Below, in pieces: positions 2,631 through 62,436 of a stretch of DNA of 64,000 nucleotides. The notes beneath the pieces are model-generated. The model searched no databases and was not told the origin of the DNA. It was given only the letters and a program-made list of their open reading frames with translations. Made by a program: the position numbers and the translations under genes. Positions within the stretch are counted from its first letter, which is position 1. Every line of letters starts with the position of its first letter. The stretch covers positions 68,510,001-68,574,000 of the forward strand of contig OZ024746.1 in assembly GCA_964016885.1 (NCBI GenBank). Direction: 5' to 3'. This DNA is from Eledone cirrhosa (Eukaryota).

Positions 2631-3125
2631 TCATAATAGTGCAGGTGTTATTAGACTGAACAACAACAAATGACATGGGGAAATGATGTCAAAACAAAAA
2701 AAAAGGTGGAAGTGAGGAACAATATATATATATTTTTTTTTTAAATAAGGTTCTTGGCTGAAACTGTAGATAGGGGTTCAATTTCAGTGAGGTTGAAATC
2801 TAGGGACAAACACGAATGAGATTAAAGTGAAGGAAAGGGTGCAGCTACTTGCTACAGTTGTGAGGTAAGTCATAATTTAGTATTACTGGAATTCCACAGA
2901 CACACAGTCACAGACCTCACAAATTTCCCATCTCCTTCATCACGATCATCATTATCAGGATCATGATCATCATCATCGTAATCATCATCATCATCATCGT
3001 AATCATCATCATCATCATTGAGTATTCACATGAGCATTCAAGATCAATTATCATCATCATCGTCATCTTCTCATACATCATCTTTCCATTTCTCTATTTC
3101 CTTCTTTCATTTGTTCTCTCTCTCT

Positions 3126-3177
<52 letters not shown>

Positions 3178-3539
3178 CTCATTTGTTCTTTCTCTTTCTC
3201 TTTCTCTCATTCTCATTTGTTCTTTCTCTCTTTCTCCCTCTGTCATTCCTCACCACACTATTTTACATCACACAAGCACACCATCTATCATATATACATA
3301 AGCACGCAAAAACAAAACATGACAGAGCATCTATGTGGTGTTTCTAGCTGCTAGAAATAGTAGCCAAATCTCTCTTGGATCACACCCTACTATCTGAAAT
3401 AAGAAAAGGACATATTAGATAATATATTCCTACATATGAAGACAGGATAGTCATGATTAGGAGGTCTTTGATCATATGGTTACTCAGTTGTGGTCAGCTT
3501 GGGGCTAAACAAAAGCATCAACAAAGCAGCCGATTTAAC

Positions 3540-3782
3540 ACACACAAACACACACAACATACACACACAACATACACACACACTCAACATGTCACACACA
3601 CAACATGACACACACAACACAGAAACACAACACAACGCAGACACATAACATGACACATAACACAACACACACACACACCACACACAACATGACACATACA
3701 CACAACATGACACACACACATGATACACACTCACACACACATGACACACACACACACACACACACATCACACACACACACAC

Positions 3783-7897: not shown

Positions 7898-9655
7898 ATC
7901 ATCATCATCATCATCATCATCATCAGGTTTAGCGTCCGTGTTCCACGCTTGCATGGGTTTGGACGGGGGTTTTCCCACTTGAGGCAAGAGTGGTTGTCTT
8001 GCTCGCATAGGACTGTCTGGCGGGTTTTCTACAGTTGGATGCCCTTTCTAACACCAACCACATTTACAGTGTGGGGCTGGGAGGTTTTTACCGTGTTGCC
8101 TACACGGCCACATTACAGCGTGGACTGTCTGGCGGGTTTTCTACAGCTGGATGCCCTTCCTAACACCAACCACATTTACAGTGTGGGGCTGGGAGGTTTT
8201 TACCGTGTTGCCTACACGGCCACATTTACAGCGTGGACTGTGTGTTTTTTTGTCGTGACACCTACACGATCTCATTTGTTTCGGCCTGGATGTTGTGGGA
8301 CCAACATAACTTTACATTGAAAGGGGCGGTGTGGATGGGGTGGAGGTGGTGGGACCGGGGGGTGTTTTGATAGAGATGCCTACTGACTGTAGTAGGTTTT
8401 TACTTTGTATTTAGGTAAGGCGGGTCTTCTCTATTACTGAGTACCGCCAAAGGTCTCGGTCCAGTGACATTGTCTTGGAGAGGTGTAAGCGTGTGAGGTC
8501 GGAATTTATCAGCTCGTCCCATGTTTTTCTGGGTCTGCCTACTCCGTGGCTACCGTCTATCTTTATTGCCCTGCACTTTGTTATACAGCTGTCGTCTTTC
8601 ATGCGCATCACGTGACCGTACCAACGTAGCCTTCTCTCGAGTAAACAACATCTGATCCCTCTTATTTCTAATTTTTTTTCTTAGTTCGTTTATGCTTTGC
8701 CGTTCACGTATATTACTATTGCACATCCAGCGGAGCATGCAAGCTTCGTTCCTCTCTAGTCTGCGTATATCCTCTGCACACAATGCCCAGGTCTCACTGC
8801 CATGCAGCATTGCTGTTCGTATGCAGGCATCGTATAACCTGCCTTTCATTTTTAGGGAGAACCCTCTAGCGGCTAATAGTGGTATAAGCTCTCTGAACTT
8901 TTTCCATCCAGTTCTGACTCTAGCTACTGTACTTTCAGAGCACCCTCCCCCACTGCTGATTTTGTCACCCAGGTAACGGAAGCTGTCCACTATTTCTATA
9001 GAACCCTCTGCGCAGTTGAAGGAGCTAGTATTTTTGGGCACTTGCTGCTACTTATTGCACCAGAGCACCGGCCACATGTAAAATCTATGTTCTTAGTTAG
9101 CTTACCTGTGATCCCACTACATCTTTTATGTACCCATACTTTGCATCTGGGACATAAAATGGAGTTTCTACCTACGCCTTTCCTACACACTGAGCATGGC
9201 CATTTCCCAGATGGGACTGCCGCTTTATTTTCTTTCCTACAAACTAGAACTTTAGTCTTAGCCAGGTTAATTTTAAGGCCTTTTGATTCTAGGCCGTGCT
9301 TCCATGTTTGGAATTTCTTCTCTAGTTCGGTCATTGATTCAGCTATGAGCGTTAGATCATCTGCGTATAGGAGTTCCCATGGGCAGCCGGTCTTGAACTC
9401 CTCTGTTATAGCCTGAAGGGCAATAATAAATAGTAGGGGGCTAAGAACAGAGCCCTGATGGACACCAACTTTTACGCTAAACTCTTCACTATATTCGTTG
9501 TTAATTCTAACCTTACTGACTGTTTCTTTATACATGGCTTGTATAACTCTCACAAGCCATTCGTCAACACCTAGTTTTCTAAGAGACCACCAGATAATGG
9601 AACGGGGGGACTCTGTCGAAGGCTTTCTCCAAGTCGACGAAAGCTAAGTATAGGG

Positions 9656-11728: not shown

Positions 11729-12353
11729 CCGAGTTCAAATCCCGCCGAGGTTCACTTTGCCTTTCATCCTTACGGGGTCGATAAAATAAAGTACCAGTAA
11801 TGCACTGGTTAATTGCTGGCCTTGTGCCTAAAGTAGAAACAATTATAATATAAAAGTACCAGTAATGTACTGGGTAATTGCTGGCATTGTGCCAAAAAGT
11901 AGAAACAATTATAATATAAATAAGGGTAGTGGATTGGCAGTATCGGTAGAGGGTCGGACGCAATGCTTTGACGCATAGAGTTACGGCCCTTGCCATTCTG
12001 AATTCAAATCCCACTGAGGTTAACTTTGCCTTTCATCCTTATGGGGGTCGATAAAATAAAGTACCAGTAATACACTGAGTAATTGCTGGCCTTGTGCCAA
12101 AAGTAGAAACAATTATAATATAAATCAGAACCTTTGTTAGATTATATTCCAAACACAAGGTTAATAATTGTTTCTACTTTTGGCACAAGGCCAGCAATTA
12201 CCCCCAGTACATTACTGGTACTTTATTTTATCGACTCCAAAAGGATGAAAGGTAAAGTTAACCTTGGCGGGATTTGAACTCAGGCCGTAAAGGTCCGTAA
12301 CTCTATGCTGCTAAGCATGACATCCAACCCTCTTCCGATACTGCAAATCCACC
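11729..12353. mobile_element. Cluster of Meta-like SINEs: three plus-strand copies (11729-12117) and one minus-strand copy (12163-12353)
   Basis: Repeated SINE core and tail motifs; the last copy is inverted. Confidence 0.88.
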
Positions 12354-14940: not shown

Positions 14941-17900
14941 TCATCATCATCATCATCATCATCATTTTACGTCCGCTTTTCCCTGCTTGCAAGGGTGGGA
15001 CGGGTCTTATTCAGCACAGCATCTCTCCACTCGTCACGGTCCCTCGTCATCTCCACCGTGAGCTTCAATGATCTGAGGTCTGTTCTCACCACCTCCGCCC
15101 ATGTTTTTCGTGGTCTACCTCTACCACGTCTTCCTTCAACTGGCATTTCCTGGCACTTCTTCACCCATCGGTCATCCTCCATGCGCATCACATGTCCATA
15201 CCACCTCAGTCTCCTCTCCCGTACACTACATTCTATCCCTCTCAGACACAGTTTCTCTCTCAACACATTTATGCTGGGTCGTTCACGCACATTTACACTG
15301 CACATCCAACGGAGCATGCTTGCCTCATTTCTCTCCAGCCGTCGCATATCTTCTGCGGTAGCTGCCCATGTCTCACTACCATGCAGCATTGCGCTCCTCA
15401 CACAGGCATCATACAACCGGCCTTTCGTACGCAGGGAGAAACCCTTCTTCGTCAACAGAGGAAGCAGCTCCCTAAACTTCTTCCAACCCGTCCTTATTCT
15501 AGATACTATGGCCTCGGAACACCCTCCTCCCATGCTAATCTGATCTCCTAGGTACCGGAAGCTATCCACCACTTCTATAGCGCCCTCTCGCATTTGAAAA
15601 ATGTGTCTATCAGTGCGACTTCTACTGTCTAATTTCCCTGTACATCTACTGCATACATATTTCTCCCTACATGTTAGTTTGCCTGCTATCCCGCTACATC
15701 TCTTGTGTACCCAGGACCTACATTGTGTGCATTTTATAGAATTTATGCCAGTTCCTTTTCTGCATATCGAACATGGCCATTTCCCTGACGGAATCAGGGT
15801 TTTGTCCTCTTTTCTACTCATCAACACTTTTGTCTTAGCTAGATTTACTCTCAGTCCTCTTGCTTCCAACTGCTGTTTCCATAGCCGGAATTTATTCTCT
15901 AGCTCCTCTACTGATTCTGCCATAAGAGCCAGATCGTCAGCATAGAGAAGTTCCCATGGACAGCCAGTCTTAAACTCCTCTGTTATGGCTTGGAGGACTA
16001 TAATGAACAAGAGCGGGCTGAGGACCGAACTCTGATGTACTCCTACTTGTATCTGGAATTCCTCACTAAACTCCATTCCTACCCTGACTTTACTGAGAGT
16101 ACCTCTGTACAAAGTTTGCACTGTCCTTACAAGCCATTCCTCAACACCCAGCTTCCTTAGGGACCACCAGATGACAGATCGGGGTACCCTATCAAAGGCC
16201 TTCTCTAGGTCAACAAAGGCTAAGTATAGTGGCTTATTCTTCTCTAAGAACCTCTCTTGCATTTGTCTCACCAAGAAGAGGGCATCTGTTGTACTCTTCC
16301 CAGGCACAAAACCAAACTGCATCTCATCTAGTTTGACCCTTTCTCTAATTAGTTGTGCTAAAATCCTTTCTGCCACTTTCATAACCTGATCTATCAGTTT
16401 TATACCCCTATAATTGCTCCTCTCCAAAGCATCCCCTTTACCTTTGTAGCAATTTATGAGAATACTGCTGCACCAGTCTTTGGGTATGACACCACCATAT
16501 ATAGCCTGATTGATTATGCGTGCAACCAGTTTAGTGCCTACGTCCCCTGATGCCTTCAGCATCTCAGCAACTATTCCCGATGGTCCGGCCGCCTTACCAT
16601 TTTTCATTTCCCTAATCGCCTCTTGGACCCTATATTCGTCAATCTCAATAGCTGGTCCCTCTGTCGGATCTACCAAGGGTAATTTCTCTCTCTCCCATTC
16701 GTTCTCCACATTCATCAGTCTCTCATAATGACATTTCCAGGCCTCCTTTTTCTGGTCATTCGTGACACTAAGTACACCGGCATCATCCCGGACACATTTA
16801 TCACCAACAACATCCTGATTTGCATTGACACACTGCCTTGCAATGTGGAACACCGCACGCCTCTGATCTTCCCGTCGCAGAACATTGGCAAACCTCCTAC
16901 TCTCTGCCTCCCTGCGTGCTAAGTACACCTGACGTCTAGCTTCTCTCTTAGTGGCTGTATATTCTTCCCTACTCCCACCCTTATTCCAAGCCTTCCATGC
17001 TAGTCTTTTGTCTCTAATAGCCTTATCTACACTGCTGTTCCACCACCAGGTCACTCTCTGTCTGGTTGGAGCTCTGCTCCAGCCACAGGTTTCATCAGTA
17101 GCCTTCAGCAAGTTGTCACGTAAGAACTTCCAGTTATTATCTATGTCATACGTCTCTAAATCGTCTTCTTTTTCGTCATATACATCTTGAAGGGCTTTCC
17201 TAAATTTGAATTTTAGTGAAAGGTCTTTTAGCTTCCAGACCTTTCTTCTCCACACCTTCCTATATGTCTCATTCCATCTCTTGCTTACTGAGATATCACT
17301 AACAACTAACCTATGCTGTGGGGTACATTCTTCCCCAGGGTATGCCTTGGTATTAGACACTATCTGCCTGTCCCGCTGCCTAACTAGCAGGAAGTCAATC
17401 TGGCTTATGTGCTCACCAGATTTGTAGGTTATTAGGTGATTGGCAGGTTTCTGGAAGTTTGTGTTGCAAATAGTCAATGTACTTGCATCACAAAATTCAA
17501 GAAGTCTCACTCCTTCTTCATTTCTTGAACCGTAACCGTGCCCACCATGTACCCCAGTGTAACCATCCTGGAGCTGTCCAACATGACCATTGAAGTCTCC
17601 TGCTAGCATAACGATGTCTCCGTCCTCTGTCATTGTGGTTGTTTGCAAAAGTTGCTCATAAAAGCAGTCTTTCTCATCTTTGCCTAGGCCTGCTTGGGGA
17701 GCATAGACCGAGATGATTGTCAGTAGTCTCCTACCTACAACTAATCTAAGCTTAATTATTCGATTACTAACTCGAACTACCTCTATTGTCTTATTGATCC
17801 ATTTCTCAGCCAGGAAAATGCCTACTCCCCCTAACCCATCATCCTTACCTACCCAGAATAGCTTATAGCTAAGACGCTTGCCTACGACTAGTCTCGCAGA

Positions 17901-18226
17901 GGCACCCCTCCATCTCACCTCTTGCACGCAGCACACATCCACCTGCCTTCTCTCCAGCATCTCCGCTATTTCAGCAGACCTACCTCTGAGAGTGCCAACA
18001 TTAAGTGTTGCAACTCTGAGATGCGACGTCTTCATATTTTTCTATGCTGTTTTGTTGCTGTGCTGATAAGCTTTTTGGCATTGATACACTGGTTGGATGC
18101 CCTTCCTAACACCAGCGCCACTTTACAGCATGGACTGGGTGCTTTTATTTGTGCCACCAGCACTAGAGAGGATGTCTTACTAGACTCAAGGGCCCTCTCT
18201 ACCCCTCCATTTTACAGCATGGTCAT
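14940..18226 (-). mobile_element. Apparently full-length RTE-clade non-LTR retrotransposon
   Basis: ~190-nt 5' UTR with the GGAAGGGCATCC motif, a single 1022-aa ORF, and a (GAT)n tail directly after the stop codon; embedded in (TA)n. Confidence 0.95.
14967..18035 (-). CDS. RTE LINE ORF: APE endonuclease + reverse transcriptase with an inserted PHD-like C4HC3 finger
   Basis: APE motifs [31 protein letters not shown]; RT motifs [44 protein letters not shown]; RTE C-terminal [10 protein letters not shown] and GRPRKTW. Confidence 0.96.
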
Positions 18227-19440: not shown

Positions 19441-20432
19441 AATAATAATAATGAAATTATTGTGTACAGTGCTCAGGTGCACTACAACTCATCAAACGTG
19501 CATGTATAGTACATAGAATAATGTACAAATGTCAGGAAAATGAACAGTGTACGAGTCATGATATAATAACAATAACAATAATGAAATATTGTGTACAGTG
19601 CCCAGGTGCACCACAACTCATCAAAAAAGTGCATGTACAGTACATAGGGCAATGCACAAACATCAGTAAAATGAACAGTGCACGAGTCATGATACACACG
19701 TGTGCATGTGCATGGAAGGGGTACATCAGGTGTAGTTTTGGCTTATTTCGGGAAGCATGAGTGTCTTAAAGGATGCAGTGTCTCGGCAGCTAACAATTGA
19801 CGCAGGCAGTTTGTTCCATGCTTCAGCAACTCTGAGCGTGAAAAAATCTCTACGAAAGTCATGGGAGCTGTGCTGTTTTCTGATCTTGTAGGCATGTCCA
19901 CGTGTGTTAGACACATGGAGATCAAAGAGGCGCTCAGGGCTGCAATTGGCGAGATGGTTAAAAACTTTGTGGGTATTCACCAAGTCCATTGCCAGACGTC
20001 GGAGCTTCAATGAATCCATGCTCAGGGAAGCAAGGCGTTCAGAGTATGGTAGGTGTCTGATGGAGGGTATGCGCTTGGTTGCACGTCTCTGAACAGTTTC
20101 CAGGAGGTCAATGTTCTGAGCAAGATAGGGGTTACAGACTGATGATGCGAATTCCAAGTGTGGTCGTACCATAGCTGTATACAGTTTTAAATAGATGGCT
20201 GGAGAGCGGCTAACAAAGGTCTTGCTGAGTGATGCCAAGACACCCTCGGCCTTCTTGACAATCTTAGAGACATGCTTTTTCCAATGCAAATCGTTGCTGA
20301 CAGTAATGCCCAGGTCACGTTCACAAGAGGACTTTTTGATATCAGTGTTGTGGAGGGAGTATGTGGACGCTGGATTTTTCCTTCCAAAATGCATGGTGGT
20401 ACACTTGTCCACAGCCAGCTTCAGTTGCCAGT
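19441..20432 (-). mobile_element. CR1-clade LINE 3' fragment with a second short 3' tail copy stacked on its end
   Basis: ORF 19726-20412 has KC..MHFG, ERDLG, YTAMVRPHLEFAS, LETVQRRATK, Y.ERL, TRGH and WNKLP motifs; (ATT)n tail. The tail occurs twice (19441-19563 and ~19565-19700). Confidence 0.9.
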
Positions 20433-21714
20433 TATATCATTCAATTATTTTTCCATTAAAAAAATTAGAATGGGAAAATAATTGAATGATATGTTGTACA
20501 GGCAAAAACCAATAGACAGGAGACCCAGACGTAGACCATGTGCAAGATGGTTGAATATCATCCATGAGTTCAGCTGGTCTTGCTTGAGGATCTAGCTGGA
20601 TCAGTTGGGAACGATTGCTTCTAACAGGGCCCACTGGAAGGAGTACTTGAAGATTTTTGCCTCCACTACCCTCCCAGGAATAAGTGAGTGAAGAAAAGAA
20701 GAATTATTTGTTCATATAACCTATACAAAAGCTGGATCTTTTGAATAACTTTATCAAGATCTCATCTTGAATACAAGTCTTAAATATGACATTTAAAATT
20801 TACTCTAAAATGTTACTCTAAAATTTAAGTTACATCATTGAAGAGAAACAATTTGAGAAATACAAACACATACACATACGCACATGAATATATACTGTCC
20901 TTTAAAATTTGACATTTTATGACAGACAATTCTTTTTTATACACACTATATTACAGAGGTAATGAATTGGCAGAGTTGTTAGAATGCAGTATTCATTGTG
21001 GCTCTCTGCTCATTCAGTTCAAATCCCATTGAGACTAACTTTGCGTTTCACCTTTTCTAGGTTAATAAAAAAAAAAGTACCTCTCTATTACGAGGGTTGA
21101 TTATTTTTCTAAATTTCTTTCTCACTCTTCTCTAACCTTCTCTGAAAGAAATCTGCTGTACTCAGGCTTGGAGAGAGGATGGGTTCTGCTAGGTTTTAAA
21201 ATGCCCTAAGAAACATTGTATGTCAATATGGCACCCTACAACTTCCCAATGAGTTACAGGTCCATACTATATTACAGTGATAATCATATGACACATACTA
21301 TAACAAAATTCCTAATCTCATATACATACATACATTTCATACAAACCTGTTACATGCAAAACCTTTTGAAGCAAATGAACATCTTTTTAACACTAAATGG
21401 TGCATTGTATCAGAGAGAAAGTCACATTGGCTAACAAGTAACTACTTTTCCATTGATAATACACAATATAAAGAATAAATCTCAGCTAACCAAGAGAGCG
21501 AGAGAGAGAGGGGAGAGAGTGAGAGAAAGAGGCAGAGAGAAAGAGAGAGATGGCTCCTTCTCCACATTCTTGCTTACTTCTCATCCCTTATCACTCTCAC
21601 TCCCAATTTATTATGATGTGCCTTAAGATTGGATAACAAATATTTGTACAAAATTAAAATCATAGCAAAGTCCATGAAACATAAGTAGCATTTGTATAAA
21701 TTATATATATATAT

Positions 21715-38077: not shown

Positions 38078-38697
38078 AACATTACATATCCTTTCAATCG
38101 TGCTTGCTTTGTTTCTCTCCAGTGATGTATACTGCAATAATATATACTGCATTATTGACATGGCATTAACAGAACATTGAACTATAACTATTTTAGCATT
38201 ATAGATTTAGATACTGAGTGTAGACACAGCCTGGCTGAATGGTGAAGAAGTTGACTTCACAATCATGAGGTTCTGGGTTCAATCACAGCATATGGGATCT
38301 TGAGAAGGTGTCTTCCACAATAGACTTCGGACAATACAAACCTAACGAGAGAAATTGGATTGATGGAAACTGTTTGGGCATCAATCAGATGGATTATACC
38401 TGTAATGCTTCAAAGGGCCAGCATAGTCTCACACTCTGTCAGACTGAATTGCCTTGTCAATTATGTTACAGGTACATATGTTATTGAGATACTCATCTAC
38501 TAGCATGAGTATACCACACCATTGATTAAACAACTAGAACATTCATCGTTAAAACCAATAAAGGTAGATTTACTTTTACTATACCAGCACTTTACAGAAT
38601 CTAATTGTAAGTTTAGCGCAATACCTCAAATACCCCACCCTATATATATATCCCACCCTTGCAAGCAGGGAAAAGCGGACGTAAAATGATGATGATG

Positions 38698-38767
<70 letters not shown>

Positions 38768-38806
38768 ATATTAAATAAATGGAAACTATATTTATAAAAC
38801 CATATT

Positions 38807-38867
38807 TATTCTATTATATATATTTCAAGGGTACCAAAATTTTGGTACGCTATCATCAGATAAAATA
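38807..38867 (-). ncRNA. Minimal type I hammerhead ribozyme motif (left arm copy)
   Basis: Exact reverse complement of 40694-40754. Confidence 0.65.
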
Positions 38868-39769
38868 CGAAGTGTGTTTTATAAATTTTGACATAACCAA
38901 GGAGAATATACCTTAACGGTTCAAGTTTTCCTTGGATAGTGAGGGGATAAGAGAAGAAAAGTCAGATATTTCAAATTATTAAGATGAGTATGCAAATGAG
39001 GTTTAGGTAAAAGAGCTGAAAAAAACGTTATTTTAGATGCTATGGAAAATTAAAATAATTATGATAAGTTATTGTATGTGTAGGAAAGAAGAGAAAGGAA
39101 GAAGAGCTAGCATTTACGTTAATATGGGGAAAAAAAGTGGAATATGATTCCAGAGTTTAAATTTTAATTTATTTACCTATATTATGAGTTATAATATTGT
39201 ATATATAATCCATTAGATTATATGAAGAATTATGGTTGTAAGTATTTTTATCTTATTACATTACGATAGGTTATATGTATATATGTAAATATCTATATCT
39301 ATATAGATTATATAGGTTATATGTATATATGTAAATACCTATGTAGATTAATAATTGCGTATGTATTAGTATTATAGAGATTAGTTGTTTATATATCAAA
39401 TATGAGTTACGAAGGATGTTGATTTTGTATTTTACTTAAAAATAGGTGGTTCAAGTTGTGAGAGTAGAACAATTTGTGGATTCAAAAAATTTTTGTTCAA
39501 TATTGAAAATGTTTTCAGAATATTGTTAATTTAGCAAAGTTATATAGATTATCAAACATACTATGTTTGATAATCAAACATACTATGTTTGATAATCAAA
39601 CATACTATGTATGATAAAACTAATAATTTATATGGTATGGAAAAGGACGAATATAATAACCTTATATTGAAAGAACTCAGAAAAAACAACAAAATAACAT
39701 CAAATGAAGATCTTTCAACGTTAAATAGAGAAGCTTCTGAGAATTATATTAACGGTACACATGTCTAGA

Positions 39770-40152
39770 ATAATAATAATGAAATTATTGTGTACAGTGT
39801 TCAGGTGCACTACAACTCATCAAAGGTGCATGTATAGTACATAGAATAATGTACAGATGTCAGGAAAATGAATGAACAGTGTATGAGTCATGAGATACAT
39901 GTGTGTATGTGTATGGAGGAGGGATATCAGGTATAGTGTTGGCGAATTTCAGGAAGCATGGAGGTTTTAAAGGATGCAGTGTCTCGGCAGCTAACAACTG
40001 ATGCAGGTAGTTTGTTCCATGCTTCAGCAACTCTGAGCGTGAAAAAATGTTTCCGAAAGTCATTTTTTCACGCTCAGAGTTGCTGAAGCATGGAACAAAC
40101 TACCTACATCAGTTGTTAGCTGCCAAGACACTGCATCCTTTAAAAGCTCCAT
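39770..40152 (-). mobile_element. CR1 3' fragment with a fold-back inversion (duplicate of 45230-45609)
   Basis: Arms 39958-40049 and 40061-40152 with an 11-nt loop. Confidence 0.88.
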
Positions 40153-40693
40153 CTGTAGAATGCTCAGCCATTTACATGTTAATTTCATGAGCAGGCTATT
40201 CTATTGATGGAACAACTGGAACACATTTTTGAAACTGACAGAAGTCCATTTCATTTCATATTGATTTAAGCTCTACAATAATACAGGGCTACCTTACCAT
40301 TTTACATAATCTGTATCCTCACTTCATACTTTGCTTTCAAATGTCTAATTGATTATATATACAATATTATAACTCATAATATAGGTAAATAAATTTAAAT
40401 TTAAACTCTGGAATCATATTCCACTTTTTTTCCCCATATTAACGTAAATGCTAGCTCTTCTTCCTTTCTCTTCTTTCCTACACATACAATAACTTATCAT
40501 AATTATTTTAATTTTCCATAGCGTCTAAAATAACGTTTTTTTCAGCTCTTTTACCTAAACCTCATTTGCATACTCATCTTAATAATTTGAAATATCTGAC
40601 TTTTCTTCTCTTATCCCCTCACTATGCAAGGAAAACTTGAACCGTTAAGGTATATTCTCCTTGGTTATGTCAAAATTTATAAAACACGCTTCG

Positions 40694-40754
40694 TATTTTA
40701 TCTGATGATAGCGTACCAAAATTTTGGTACCCTTGAAATATATATAATAGAATA
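40694..40754 (+). ncRNA. Minimal type I hammerhead ribozyme motif
   Basis: Stem I TATTTTAT/ATAGAATA, CTGATGA (40702-40708), stem II around the palindrome GTACCAAAATTTTGGTAC, GAAA (40735-40738), palindromic TATATA stem III, and a UA site with predicted cleavage after 40746. Stem II closes imperfectly. Confidence 0.68.
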
Positions 40755-40890
40755 AATATGGTTTTATAAATATAGTTTCCATTTATTTAATATCATTGTA
40801 TATTATACTCTAGAAAAACTGTCGAGTGCTCTGAATCAGTTATAAACATTTATATTTGTTGAATTACCAACAAATTGAATATCCTTTCTG

Positions 40891-40958
<68 letters not shown>

Positions 40959-41030
40959 TGATGGAAGCTAAGATGCTTCCATAGGCGGTATGCCGGTTGA
41001 GCACTCTATGCTCTTACAGAGCAGAGTATG

Positions 41031-41288
41031 ATAGAATAGAAAACGAAAAATCAGTAATGCATCTGAACTCAATTTATTGTGTTACAGTTGTTTCCACGGC
41101 GGACAGCTCAAGACGTTATATTTCAGAGCATATCTCCGAAATCATTAGACGTGTTCGTCGAACCTGCGGGTCCAGAATCAGACAGATCCACACAATGATC
41201 GCGTCTCGAGCTGTCCACCGGGGAAACAATTGTAACACACAATAAATTGAGTTCAGATGCATCACTGATTTTTCATTTTCTATTCTAT
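41031..41288. repeat. Inverted repeat, ~85-bp arms with an ~86-bp spacer
   Basis: 41031-41115 is the reverse complement of 41202-41288 with several mismatches. Confidence 0.9.
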
Positions 41289-41953: not shown

Positions 41954-42407
41954 GGGGGTGGATTGGCAGTATCGGTAGAGGGTCGGACGCCATGCTTTGA
42001 CGCATAGAGTTACGTCCCTTGCCATTCTGAGTTCAAAGCCCGCCAAGGTTAACTTTGCCTTTCATCCTCATGGGGTCGATGAAATAAAGTACCAGTAATG
42101 CACTGGGTAATTGCTGGCCTTGTGCCAAAAGTAGAAACAATTATTTAATATTCATATTCTGTGGTGTTACATATGTACAAATTTTGGATGTTTTACCATA
42201 TGGAATACACCTAGGAGGAATTTGTCTTTAGGATATGAATTCAAAATAGGGGGCACACTGGACAAAAACAATGAAAATAATTGTTTCTACTATTGGCACA
42301 AGGCCAGCAATTACCCAGTACATTACTGGTACTTTATTTTATCGACCCCGTAAGGATGAAAGGCAAAGTTAACCTCGGTGGGATTTGAACTCAGAATGGC
42401 AAGGGCC
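41954..42407. mobile_element. Two Meta-like SINEs tail to tail (41954-42144 plus; 42277-42407 minus, 5'-truncated)
   Basis: The second copy is flanked by the TSD TGAAAATAAT (42272-42281 and 42408-42417). Confidence 0.88.
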
Positions 42408-44969: not shown

Positions 44970-45705
44970 GAGGCAGCATGTCCAAATCGTTGAGAAGTTC
45001 ACTTTGCAATCATTAGGTCCCAGGTTCAATCCACTGTGTGGCATTTTGGGCAAGTGTCATTTACCATATATCTTTGGGTCAATCCATAGTTTGGAAGTGA
45101 AATTAGATAGATGGAAACTGTGTGGAAGATCATCAGATAGACTTCACCTCTAACTCAAAGGGCCAGTTTTATCATACAATACATCATGCTGAATCTCCCT
45201 GAGAATTATATTAACAGTACACGTGTCTAGAATAATGATAATGAAATTATTGTTTACAGTGCTCAGATGCACTACAACTCATCAAAGGTGCATGTATAGT
45301 ACATAAAATAATGTACAAATGTCAGGAAAATGAATGAACAGTGTATGAGTCATGAGATACATGTGTGTGTATGGAGGGGGATATCAAGTATAGTGTTGGC
45401 GAATTTCAGGAAGCATGGATGTTTTAAAGGATGCGGTGTCTCAGCAGCTAACAACTGATGCAGGTAGTTTGTTCCATGCTTCAGCAACTCTGAGCGTGAA
45501 AAAATGTTTCAGAAAGTCATTTTTTCATGCTCAGAGTTGCTGAAGCATGGAACAAACTACCTGCATCAGTTGTTAGCTGCCGAGACACTGCATCTTTTAA
45601 AAGCTCCATCTGTAGAATGCTCAGCCATTTACATGTTAATTTCATGAGCAGGCTATTCTATTGATGGAACAACTGGAACATACTTTTGAAACTGACAGAA
45701 GTCCA
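44970..45705 (+). mobile_element. tRNA SINE interrupted by a fold-back CR1 3' fragment (45230-45609)
   Basis: The SINE body ...GTACACGTGTCT resumes as CTGTAGAATGCTCAGCC after the insert (compare 11320-11350). Confidence 0.8.
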
Positions 45706-45899
45706 TTTCATTTCATATTGATTTAAGCTCTACAATAATACAGGGCTACCTTACCATTTTACATAATCTGTATCCTCACTTCATACTTTGCTTTCAAATG
45801 TCTTTTTCCAAATAATCAACAATATGTTAGAAATTATAGAATTTAAAAAAAATTAAAGATAATCAAACATCCCCAACTGTCTATGATATTGATGTATTG

Positions 45900-57694: not shown

Positions 57695-58999
57695 AAGCTA
57701 TATATGCAGAAAGTGCTTTCCAGTGAAATCAAACTCATAACCACATGGCTGTAAAGTGAACTTCTCAACCACACAGCCATGTTGGCAATTACATCTAAAT
57801 TCTACACTAATTAAGAAACTTTTTTTAAATATCTGACTTCAGAATTTTCTCAGGTTATAAAAGTTATGTTATATAATATAGTAAAATAACAGAGTGCAAA
57901 AAAAAAAATTAGTGATGTTTTGTGTCAGCAAAAGGAAATTACAAGTTGTTTAAATTATATAATACATTTTATGCCATGAGGAAGAGAAATACTGACTAAG
58001 TAGTTGTCATAGGTACAGATGATGAAATATTTAGTGATTATCTACAAACCACACACTCCAGATATTGAGTTTAATGTACAAGAAATTGTTTCCCCAGGGT
58101 TATGTCTTCAGTCTACCTCTATTAAATATAATTCAAAAGTTCTAGACAGGATATTATTGAGAACTTTTTTATATGCTGATGCTTTGGTTCTTATAAGAAT
58201 TGGATACAGAGCTGCAGAAAATGTTACTGGAATGGAACTCTGTCAGATTCGATGACGATTGCTCAAGTTGTCCGATCAATAGAACAACATGCTCATAATA
58301 CTAACATGCAAATGGCTGGAGCATTCTACAGATACATGTACCTTTAACATAATTCTGAGGGAGATTTAATGTAATACAATGTGTGACAAGGCTTGCACTC
58401 TGAATTACAGGTACAATCATTCTGACTGCCTTCCACACAGTTTTTGTATACCCAATTTTACTCACAAGGCATAAGTCAATCCAAGGCTAAAGAAAATCTC
58501 ACTTGCTCAAGATGCTATACAGTGAGATCAAACTTGGGAACTAATGATTGTGAAGCGAACTCCTGAACTATTCAGCCGATTTAAATATACTACATATATC
58601 AGGAAAATACATTCTCACTCATGAATAACACATAACTAATAGAGAGACACATAGTGCAATGTAATTCAACATAATCCTTAAAATACAGAGTAGTCACTGT
58701 TGGAACAACTTTGATTATATATCTGCTCAAACAGCAATGATGTGCAGTTAAACAACAGCAAATACAGCAAAAGAAATATTGAAGCTGGGTGCTTAGGGAA
58801 TAAAAAAGATGGTCATGATAGAACTATCCTTCAACATCATCATCCTACTGCCTCAACTTTGGAAGAGTTTAGTAGGTTGAAATGCCAGATTCCGTCATGC
58901 TTATTGCATGCTAACCAAGACTGGGCTTTTCTAGTGTTGAAATCTTTTCCAGTGTCCATTATCCATACGATGCTCTATCTGGGGCTCTATCTCAGGCTC

Positions 59000-61820: not shown

Positions 61821-61861
61821 AATATGATAATAATGGAGCTGCGGCGTTGCAAATGGGTTAC

Positions 61862-62208
61862 ATATAAAAAAGTGAGTCCTTCATCAGCGACCCTCCAACC
61901 GTCCTCGGCATTTCATCGCTTTAAGGGCCATATGACTCGGGTTGGTGCGAACAACGGCTAAAAAAAGTCGTTGGGACACGTAAACAAAGGGGGACGCTAG
62001 AGTAACAACAAAAAAGTTTAAGCAACGGTTCTACTCACTTTCCGTTGCTTAAACTTTTTTGTTGTTACTCTAGCGTCCCCCTTTATTTACGTGTCCCAAC
62101 AACTTTTTTTAGCCGTTGTTCGCACCAACCCGAGGCATATGGCCCTTAAAGCGATGAAATGCCGAGGACGGTTGGAGGGTCACTGATGAAGGACTCACTT
62201 TTTCATAT
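61862..62208. repeat. Near-perfect 167-bp fold-back (13-nt loop), possibly a Penelope-like terminal repeat
   Basis: 61862-62028 is the reverse complement of 62042-62208. CTGATGA lies near the outer end of each arm; flanked by (TA)n. Confidence 0.9.
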
Positions 62209-62436
62209 ATATATATATATGGATAGAACAACTAAATGCAGGGAGTCATAAAAGTGAGAAATTTGAAAATTAACTAAAAAATAAACATTAAAATCCCATT
62301 TCTCACTTTTATTGTCCATCTGATCAGCTGGACAGAAATTTGATTCTTCAGCTGATTAGCATCATTAAAACCCACTAATTGCACTATTTTCTTCTTTTTT
62401 TTTATCACAACTGAATACCATTAATTAGGTATAGTA

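Follow-up and report, generated by a model that had tools for sequence, protein, structure and literature searches.

A Penelope-like insertion in Eledone cirrhosa that encloses a copy of neighboring DNA

Host DNA enclosed by the ends of Penelope-like elements (PLEs) is already in print. In the available text on Penelope elements of Adineta vaga (Arkhipova et al., 2013; PMC3846280), host DNA lies within a PLE unit, inverted junctions form palindromes, internal deletions are bounded by microhomology, and a gene has been relocated, with a target-site duplication at its new position. The locus described here, in a 64,000-nucleotide stretch of the Eledone cirrhosa genome (GCA_964016885.1, contig OZ024746.1, positions 68,510,001 to 68,574,000; hereafter the window, whose numbering is used throughout), resembles the rotifer case in the first three respects. 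It differs in that the donor lies 4.3 kb away, the acquired segment (the cargo) replaces the middle of the element copy, and nothing was moved.

The closest parallel comes from L1, in the form of templated insertions and twin priming with template switching (bioRxiv 10.1101/2024.08.27.596794; also PMC11702581). As far as the former describes them, L1 templated insertions (22, with 3,598 insertions examined) are typically shorter than 250 bp and originate within 15 bp of the site, whereas the patch in the window measures 610 bp, comes from 4.3 kb away, and is flanked on either side by segments of a PLE. Non-LTR retrozymes, in the accessible part of their description (bioRxiv 10.64898/2026.07.22.740005), are likewise non-coding, PLE-derived and hammerhead-bearing, but they consist of tandem same-sense hammerheads. 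The two hammerheads of the window lie on opposite strands of a single-copy unit, one per strand, and with no tandem same-sense array we rejected the locus as a retrozyme of this type.

In Pack-MULE and in Ds-like gap-repair gene capture, internal sequence is replaced by copied host DNA between inverted ends; these elements have true terminal inverted repeats and move again together with their cargo. In the window, by contrast, the arms are a head-to-head by-product, and the searches, in each of which 40 candidates were scored, turned up no daughter copy. What is unusual here is the length of the patch, its distance to the donor, and the fact that a donor was identified. In the literature covered, which included few subscription papers and no supplements, we found no description of a PLE whose donor was local but kilobases away. 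The structure itself is real and well preserved, but it is a single rearrangement, and the dead copy that carries it belongs to a known kind of element.

The parent family and the layout of the insertion

The parent is a high-copy PLE with Hydra-clade motifs. In the 3.0 Gb of genome searched, the arm sequence drew 2,938 first-look candidates, and among the best 40 of these, which were scored, the best other matches were 90-96% identical. The family unit is about 3.7 kb long. Its DKG motif is modified to DKT (KSDKTNNLY in family copies L077, L079 and L080; DKTNNLY in the window), a CxCx5C linker is present as CNCRIKSNC or CNCRIKLNC in the same three copies, and the N-terminal RWK motif occurs as an RWH variant, KLRWHAF, in L087. 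A single frame of 699 aa contains YRDD and the C-terminal motifs VVYKC..NYVGAT..RWNN, read by eye, and we read it as one ORF joining a reverse transcriptase (RT) core to a C-terminal GIY-YIG endonuclease, as in the Hydra clade. Look-alike proteins in the atlas scored 0.96-0.98, and some of their clusters carry GIY-YIG (26-58% of members) and RVT_1 (77%). A Pfam scan returned no family for any of three family proteins, and a PDB profile search gave one chance match only (E 0.75).

Compared by motifs with the published definition, the family agrees with the Hydra-clade C-terminal-endonuclease PLEs in the available text of Craig et al. (2021; PMC8557442) in its DKT, CxCx5C linker, RWK-like N-terminal motif, C-terminal GIY-YIG-like domain, pLTR hammerhead, (TA)n targets, and inverted 5'-truncated copy with optional tail. 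Hydra-clade PLEs are given there as shorter than 3 kb with tails usually described as 30-40 nt, whereas the present family exceeds both the length and, with about 90 nt, the tail. Both ends of the insertion and many family ends adjoin (TA)n.

There are two main classes of family 3' end, a short one (window 38758) and one with the tail of about 90 nt (40893); a third end near 40787 appears as loose ends in read contigs. Many of the copies nearest to the tailed end of the insertion (L186-L222; 96-98%) have no ORF and consist of a tiny head-to-head pair or a solo end, 150-350 bp in size; they resemble hammerhead-bearing MITE-like relics. A truncated copy of the family studied here is joined directly, at L223 (875-5178), to a second PLE-like family, which is more distant and whose inverted arms of 458 bp are 99% identical.

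The 450-bp inverted arms described in an earlier sequence-only reading of the window are real, and measured 460 nt each (38758-39217 and 40344-40803), 99% complementary with five substitutions. The element boundaries of that reading held for the arms only: the left copy extends 350 bp beyond its arm, to 39568, and the right copy about 90 bp, to approximately 40893, as the optional family tail, which had been missed. The arms are the overlap between two head-to-head 5'-truncated PLE copies and not terminal repeats of one unit. The two copies face each other in (TA)n, one stopping at the short family end and the other at the tailed end. The same layout was found at 95 of 160 other family loci, and head-to-head junctions are described as typical of PLEs in the part of PMC8557442 available. 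No target-site duplication was readable in the microsatellite flanks of the insertion.

Against the natural copy L090, window 39568 to 38753 corresponds to positions 2877-3664 on the minus strand, and window 39612-39747 and 40344-40807 to positions 517-651 and 3191-3664 on the plus strand. The left copy is 90% identical to copy L076, and the tail has 39 other matches at 96-98%. As the left copy holds 314 bp that are missing from the right one, it was not folded back from the cargo-bearing strand.

The ORF fragment runs antiparallel to the left copy. Its peptide, YDKTNNLYGMEKDEYNNLILKELRKNNKITSNEDLSTLNREAS, is encoded on the plus strand at 39613-39735. It matches at least 149 further places in the genome with 75-98% identity (best 150 of 8008 candidates scored), in agreement with the PLE remnant recognized in the sequence-only reading. 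The 22-bp repeat at the head-to-head junction likely reflects snap-back plus reiteration. Similar junction inserts, palindromic or reiterated, recur across the family (L128, L153, L169, L175, L177, L198, L216), and junction palindromes are described for rotifer PLEs in the available text of PMC3846280. Reiterated units measure about 13 nt in L153 (6588-6700), about 24 nt in L128 (6425-6709) and 22 nt in the window; they could stem from iterative end-joining synthesis or from the RT reiterating in the manner of telomerase.

Table 1. Features of the insertion and of the cargo donor, in window coordinates (., no strand).
Feature	Position	Strand	Remarks
(TA)n target microsatellite, left	38698..38762	.	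Family ends adjoin (TA)n in many copies
Inverted 5'-truncated PLE copy, left	38753..39568	-	816 bp of element 3' end, to short family end; contains left arm
Minimal type I hammerhead, left	38807..38867	-	Identical to right one
Head-to-head junction	39545..39612	.	Self-complementary 22-bp unit x3, linked to ORF via TGATAA microhomology
PLE ORF fragment with DKT motif, 5' end of right-hand copy	39612..39740	+	97.8% identical to L076
Cargo, 610-bp templated copy of 45199-45803	39737..40346	+	Microhomologies CTGA (left) and TCT (right)
Quasi-palindrome of high-copy repeat in cargo	39958..40152	.	92-bp arms, 11-nt spacer
Right arm, 3' end of right-hand PLE copy	40344..40803	+	94.6% identical to L076
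Minimal type I hammerhead, right	40694..40754	+	CUGAUGA 40702-40708, GAAA 40735-40738
Optional family 3' tail, ~90 nt	40804..40893	+	Also in L011, L016, L018, L022, L024-L027, L030
(TA)n(GT)n target microsatellite, right	40894..40958	.	
Cargo donor	45199..45803	+	SINE part split by palindromic repeat, plus ~90 bp unique flank

The cargo, its donor and its age

In the right-hand copy, 2,539 bp of element sequence are missing, and the cargo occupies that gap. Its close resemblance to 45199-45803, pointed out in the sequence-only reading, was confirmed at 96% over 610 nt, with 19 substitutions and two indels. Neither this match nor the inverted arms and the DKTNNLY peptide could plausibly arise by chance. 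At that locus, 4.3 kb beyond the element, a SINE spanning 44974-45710 flanks a nested palindromic high-copy repeat, and both sides align to the uninterrupted SINE at 58228-58572. The cargo begins within the SINE and stops in the unique flank, and the 45-kb locus is therefore the donor. The same direction of copying had been proposed before, and the SINE continuing on both sides of the nested repeat agrees with it.

About 380 bp of the cargo (39769-40152) is high-copy repeat, and the cargo carries no gene. The full 610-bp stretch was found at cargo and donor only (best 40 candidates scored), which counts against the objection, raised with the earlier reading, that it might itself be a multicopy repeat. 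Its unique 3' part also gave no third copy (best 40 scored), and the junction of ORF fragment and cargo did not recur elsewhere in the genome (40 candidates scored). At the junctions the cargo shares CTGA (4 nt) and TCT (3 nt) with the element, and imperfect matches flank both; the chance of both microhomologies was about 0.002 in 100,000 random element-versus-neighborhood pairings. With an intact nearby donor and microhomology at both junctions, the locus has the marks of a templated insertion made by microhomology-guided synthesis.

The cargo is nearly centered on its quasi-palindrome (centers at 40041 and 40055, respectively; a post hoc remark), and this 92-bp hairpin may have laid the template open. 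Between element and donor there are two further palindromes, both weaker. Other long repeat palindromes of the window, at 78-94% identity, are at 61859-62211, 42016-42405, 41031-41288 and 11929-12352. The window also holds RT-like fragments at 8553-9643 and 19729-20436, and on the minus strand at 14970-18041 an open frame of 1,024 aa with an endonuclease-like motif at its start, which we take to be a probably near-intact non-LTR retrotransposon.

Reads bear on whether two copies exist in the animal. In one sample (runs X1-X3), single-copy contigs had depths of 8.4-10.7, and a 294-nt contig over the duplicated part had 14.4 and 16.5, or 1.58x and 1.67x the single-copy value, where 1.40-1.52x is expected for two copies and 1.0x for one. 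Both alleles were seen at 40224/40226, with the donor letters in X1 and the cargo letters in X2 and X3. Sample and window flanks differ at 0-1 positions in 899 nt, and the sequenced sample may be the assembled individual. None of the contigs listed bridges any junction, the sole contig over the right cargo end continues into the donor flank, and three window-specific arm letters have little or no contig depth; contigs drop rare paths, and the lack of a bridging contig is not the absence of the junction. RAD-seq run X10 gave almost no depth on unique bins and is uninformative about alleles, run X4, from another organism, covered the unique flanks patchily and was left out of polarizing, and the run search listed no RNA runs holding the sequence.

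The arms differ from each other at 5 of 460 sites (1.1%) and the cargo from its donor at 19 of 605 (3.1%; Fisher p=0.035). Polarization assigned 11 of 15 substitutions to the donor and four to the cargo (binomial p=0.12), in agreement with mirror symmetry within the palindrome at seven of seven sites. Private changes per lineage (6/465, 5/464, 6/305, 4/384 and 11/384) are homogeneous (p=0.20). The capture is about as old as the insertion and not measurably younger. Of 12 inverted pairs measured, the two arms of this insertion resemble each other most closely, and they have three private changes in common; the copy is therefore young or partly converted. The age of the cargo fits capture at integration, possibly by RT, and disfavors a much later repair.

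The hammerhead motifs

A hammerhead in each arm had been noted from the sequence, and identical cores were recovered on the two strands (Table 1). In the right one, helix III is the palindrome UAUAUAUA, the cut is predicted after 40746, helix I consists of TATTTTAT paired with ATAGAATA, and helix II is bulged and starts with a U-U pair, as it does in 26 of 96 family motifs. A hammerhead core is found in 107 of 153 aligned family copies. Among the 96 distinct parsed motifs, whose rows were pre-selected by pattern, each helix I pair is kept in 90-94, and helix II shows a U-A/C-G exchange (75/12). An Rfam scan of 38500-41200 gave 29 matches, all below the gathering score and none of them a hammerhead; the miRNA matches among them were discarded as palindromes and microsatellites.

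It had been suggested that transcripts of the unit would both cleave themselves and fold back around the cargo. The two properties are self-defeating. In the predicted fold of the plus-strand transcript, 457 of the 460 arm bases pair with the other arm, so that the ribozyme would be buried, and each strand has a single minimal hammerhead. Minimal hammerheads are nearly inactive as monomers and need a second same-sense copy, according to the available text of PMC4209133. For a lizard PLE, the accessible part of PMC11167929 describes reverse transcription that begins at two internal sites downstream of the ribozyme, with mostly uncleaved RNA used as substrate in vitro. In the present family, reverse transcription would start at the two family ends, which are about 55 and 145 nt downstream of the predicted cut; cleavage would therefore remove, rather than create, the ends used for copying.

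Origin of the captured segment

Templated junction inserts are seen repeatedly in the family, as are internal deletions. We compared 160 other loci, fetching 10 kb for each with flanks of roughly 2.5-7.5 kb, beyond which more distant donors would escape; they were taken as top matches rather than drawn at random, and at least one pair among them (L107/L108) is duplicated. All 105 gaps were listed for the first 100 loci and the window, and flagged and internal gaps only for the 60 further loci. The earlier reading had asked whether cargo between arm pairs comes from within about 10 kb; in the 10 kb fetched for each, none of the 160 loci had an internal segment whose source lay kilobases off. 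Nor was any other replacement-type insert without likely transposon origin seen among them. Candidate captures were flagged in 10 gaps at seven other loci. At L160 (G000:C1:369227000 region), an inverted 215-bp copy of the element's own left flank and (TA)n target occupies 2744-2960, at the boundary of pLTR and tail, the sole adjacent-flank capture among the 160 loci. This copy differs from its source at 2 of 159 sites and the arms at 6 of 103 (p=0.06), which suggests that the flank was copied after insertion.

Other candidates were set aside. The insert at L223 is a repeat of another PLE-like family, and those at L110, L185, L192, L204 and L214 were judged, mostly from coordinates, to be tandem duplications, SINE repeats or flank. 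Inserts at L159 (3790-4714), L145 (5362-6271) and L235 (4198-4606) have ends whose motif we take to be Helitron-like, and those at L081, L118, L125, L144, L155, L172 and L180, most of which have short duplications, look like later insertions. The inserts of L159 and L145 begin at one element position (about 804), as do the unrelated inserts of L144 and L155, and this position is possibly an insertion hotspot.

The window holds a dead head-to-head PLE insertion in whose right-hand copy 2.5 kb was replaced by a 610-bp copy of DNA 4.3 kb away, probably through microhomology-guided DNA synthesis, that is, second-strand or break-repair template switching during or after integration. Two cDNAs would have been primed from the two nicked target strands and their ends joined through snap-back and microhomology. 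A DNA end in the right-hand copy would have annealed to the neighboring locus via CTGA or TCT, been extended by a 610-nt copy of it, and then returned to the element at a point 2.5 kb beyond, and the unit would have stayed put since the capture. This appears the most likely explanation given the head-to-head habit, both microhomologies, the junction inserts of the family, L160, and the lack of a third copy. The cargo tract is longer, and its source further away, than in typical L1 templated insertions, which counts against a repair reading.

Product alone cannot separate such DNA-templated synthesis from a jump of the RT, and we favor the former. It is possible, although doubtful, that, 470 nt into the right-hand cDNA, the PLE RT switched from the element RNA to nearby chromosomal DNA or a local RNA, copied 610 nt there, and resumed on the element RNA 2.5 kb upstream, within a single integration. 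In its favor, capture and insertion are of the same age within error, and the available parts of the literature offer precedents: L1 cDNAs are proposed to switch onto genomic DNA at integration (bioRxiv 2024.08.27.596794), template jumps are proposed for rotifer PLE inserts (PMC3846280), and a purified PLE protein nicks and extends both strands (PMC11167929), although jumping onto DNA is not reported in the text of the latter that was available. Two jumps plus a return to the same RNA would be required, however, the cargo bears no RNA signature such as a tail or splice, none of the 160 other loci shows a capture of this kind, and read-through RNA from the site could not predate the element. 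Misassembly, for instance if a second haplotype of the 45-kb locus had been put in the wrong place, would suit a repeat-rich region in which no listed contig bridges the junctions. It is nonetheless very improbable, with 19 sites and two indels separating cargo and donor in a sample whose flanks are almost invariant, a depth of about 1.6x with both alleles present, and microhomology at junctions that fall at element positions 2.5 kb apart.

The sequence-only reading saw in the unit a Pack-like, possibly re-mobilizable derivative. Such a unit would be a non-autonomous PLE, transcribed, self-cleaving and mobilized again with its cargo. Both family 3' ends and both hammerhead cores are indeed intact, and rotifer host DNA between pLTRs has moved in trans (PMC3846280, available text). 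We regard the proposal as hardly credible: no second copy of the cargo or of the ORF-cargo junction was found (40 candidates scored per search), none of the 160 other loci shows a kilobase-distant capture within the 10 kb fetched, the donor is adjacent and requires no mobilization, pairing of the arms is predicted to bury the ribozyme, each strand has one minimal hammerhead with a U-U at the base of helix II, and uncleaved RNA is the main PLE substrate in vitro in the part of PMC11167929 available.

The biological weight of the locus is small, as it records one non-coding event in a dead copy, with geneless cargo and no daughter copy among the candidates scored. The copy preserves two 3' ends, a snap-back junction and a long templated patch with its donor, a record of each step that bears on how PLE integration is completed. 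PLE insertions can contain copies of neighboring DNA, which repeat annotation may miscall as fold-back or Pack-like elements. It is possible, although doubtful, that a growing strand in PLE integration can copy hundreds of chromosomal bases kilobases away and then return. If such an excursion at integration were true, PLE insertion would itself be a source of local duplications, and the present locus a case in which donor, junctions and age are all readable.
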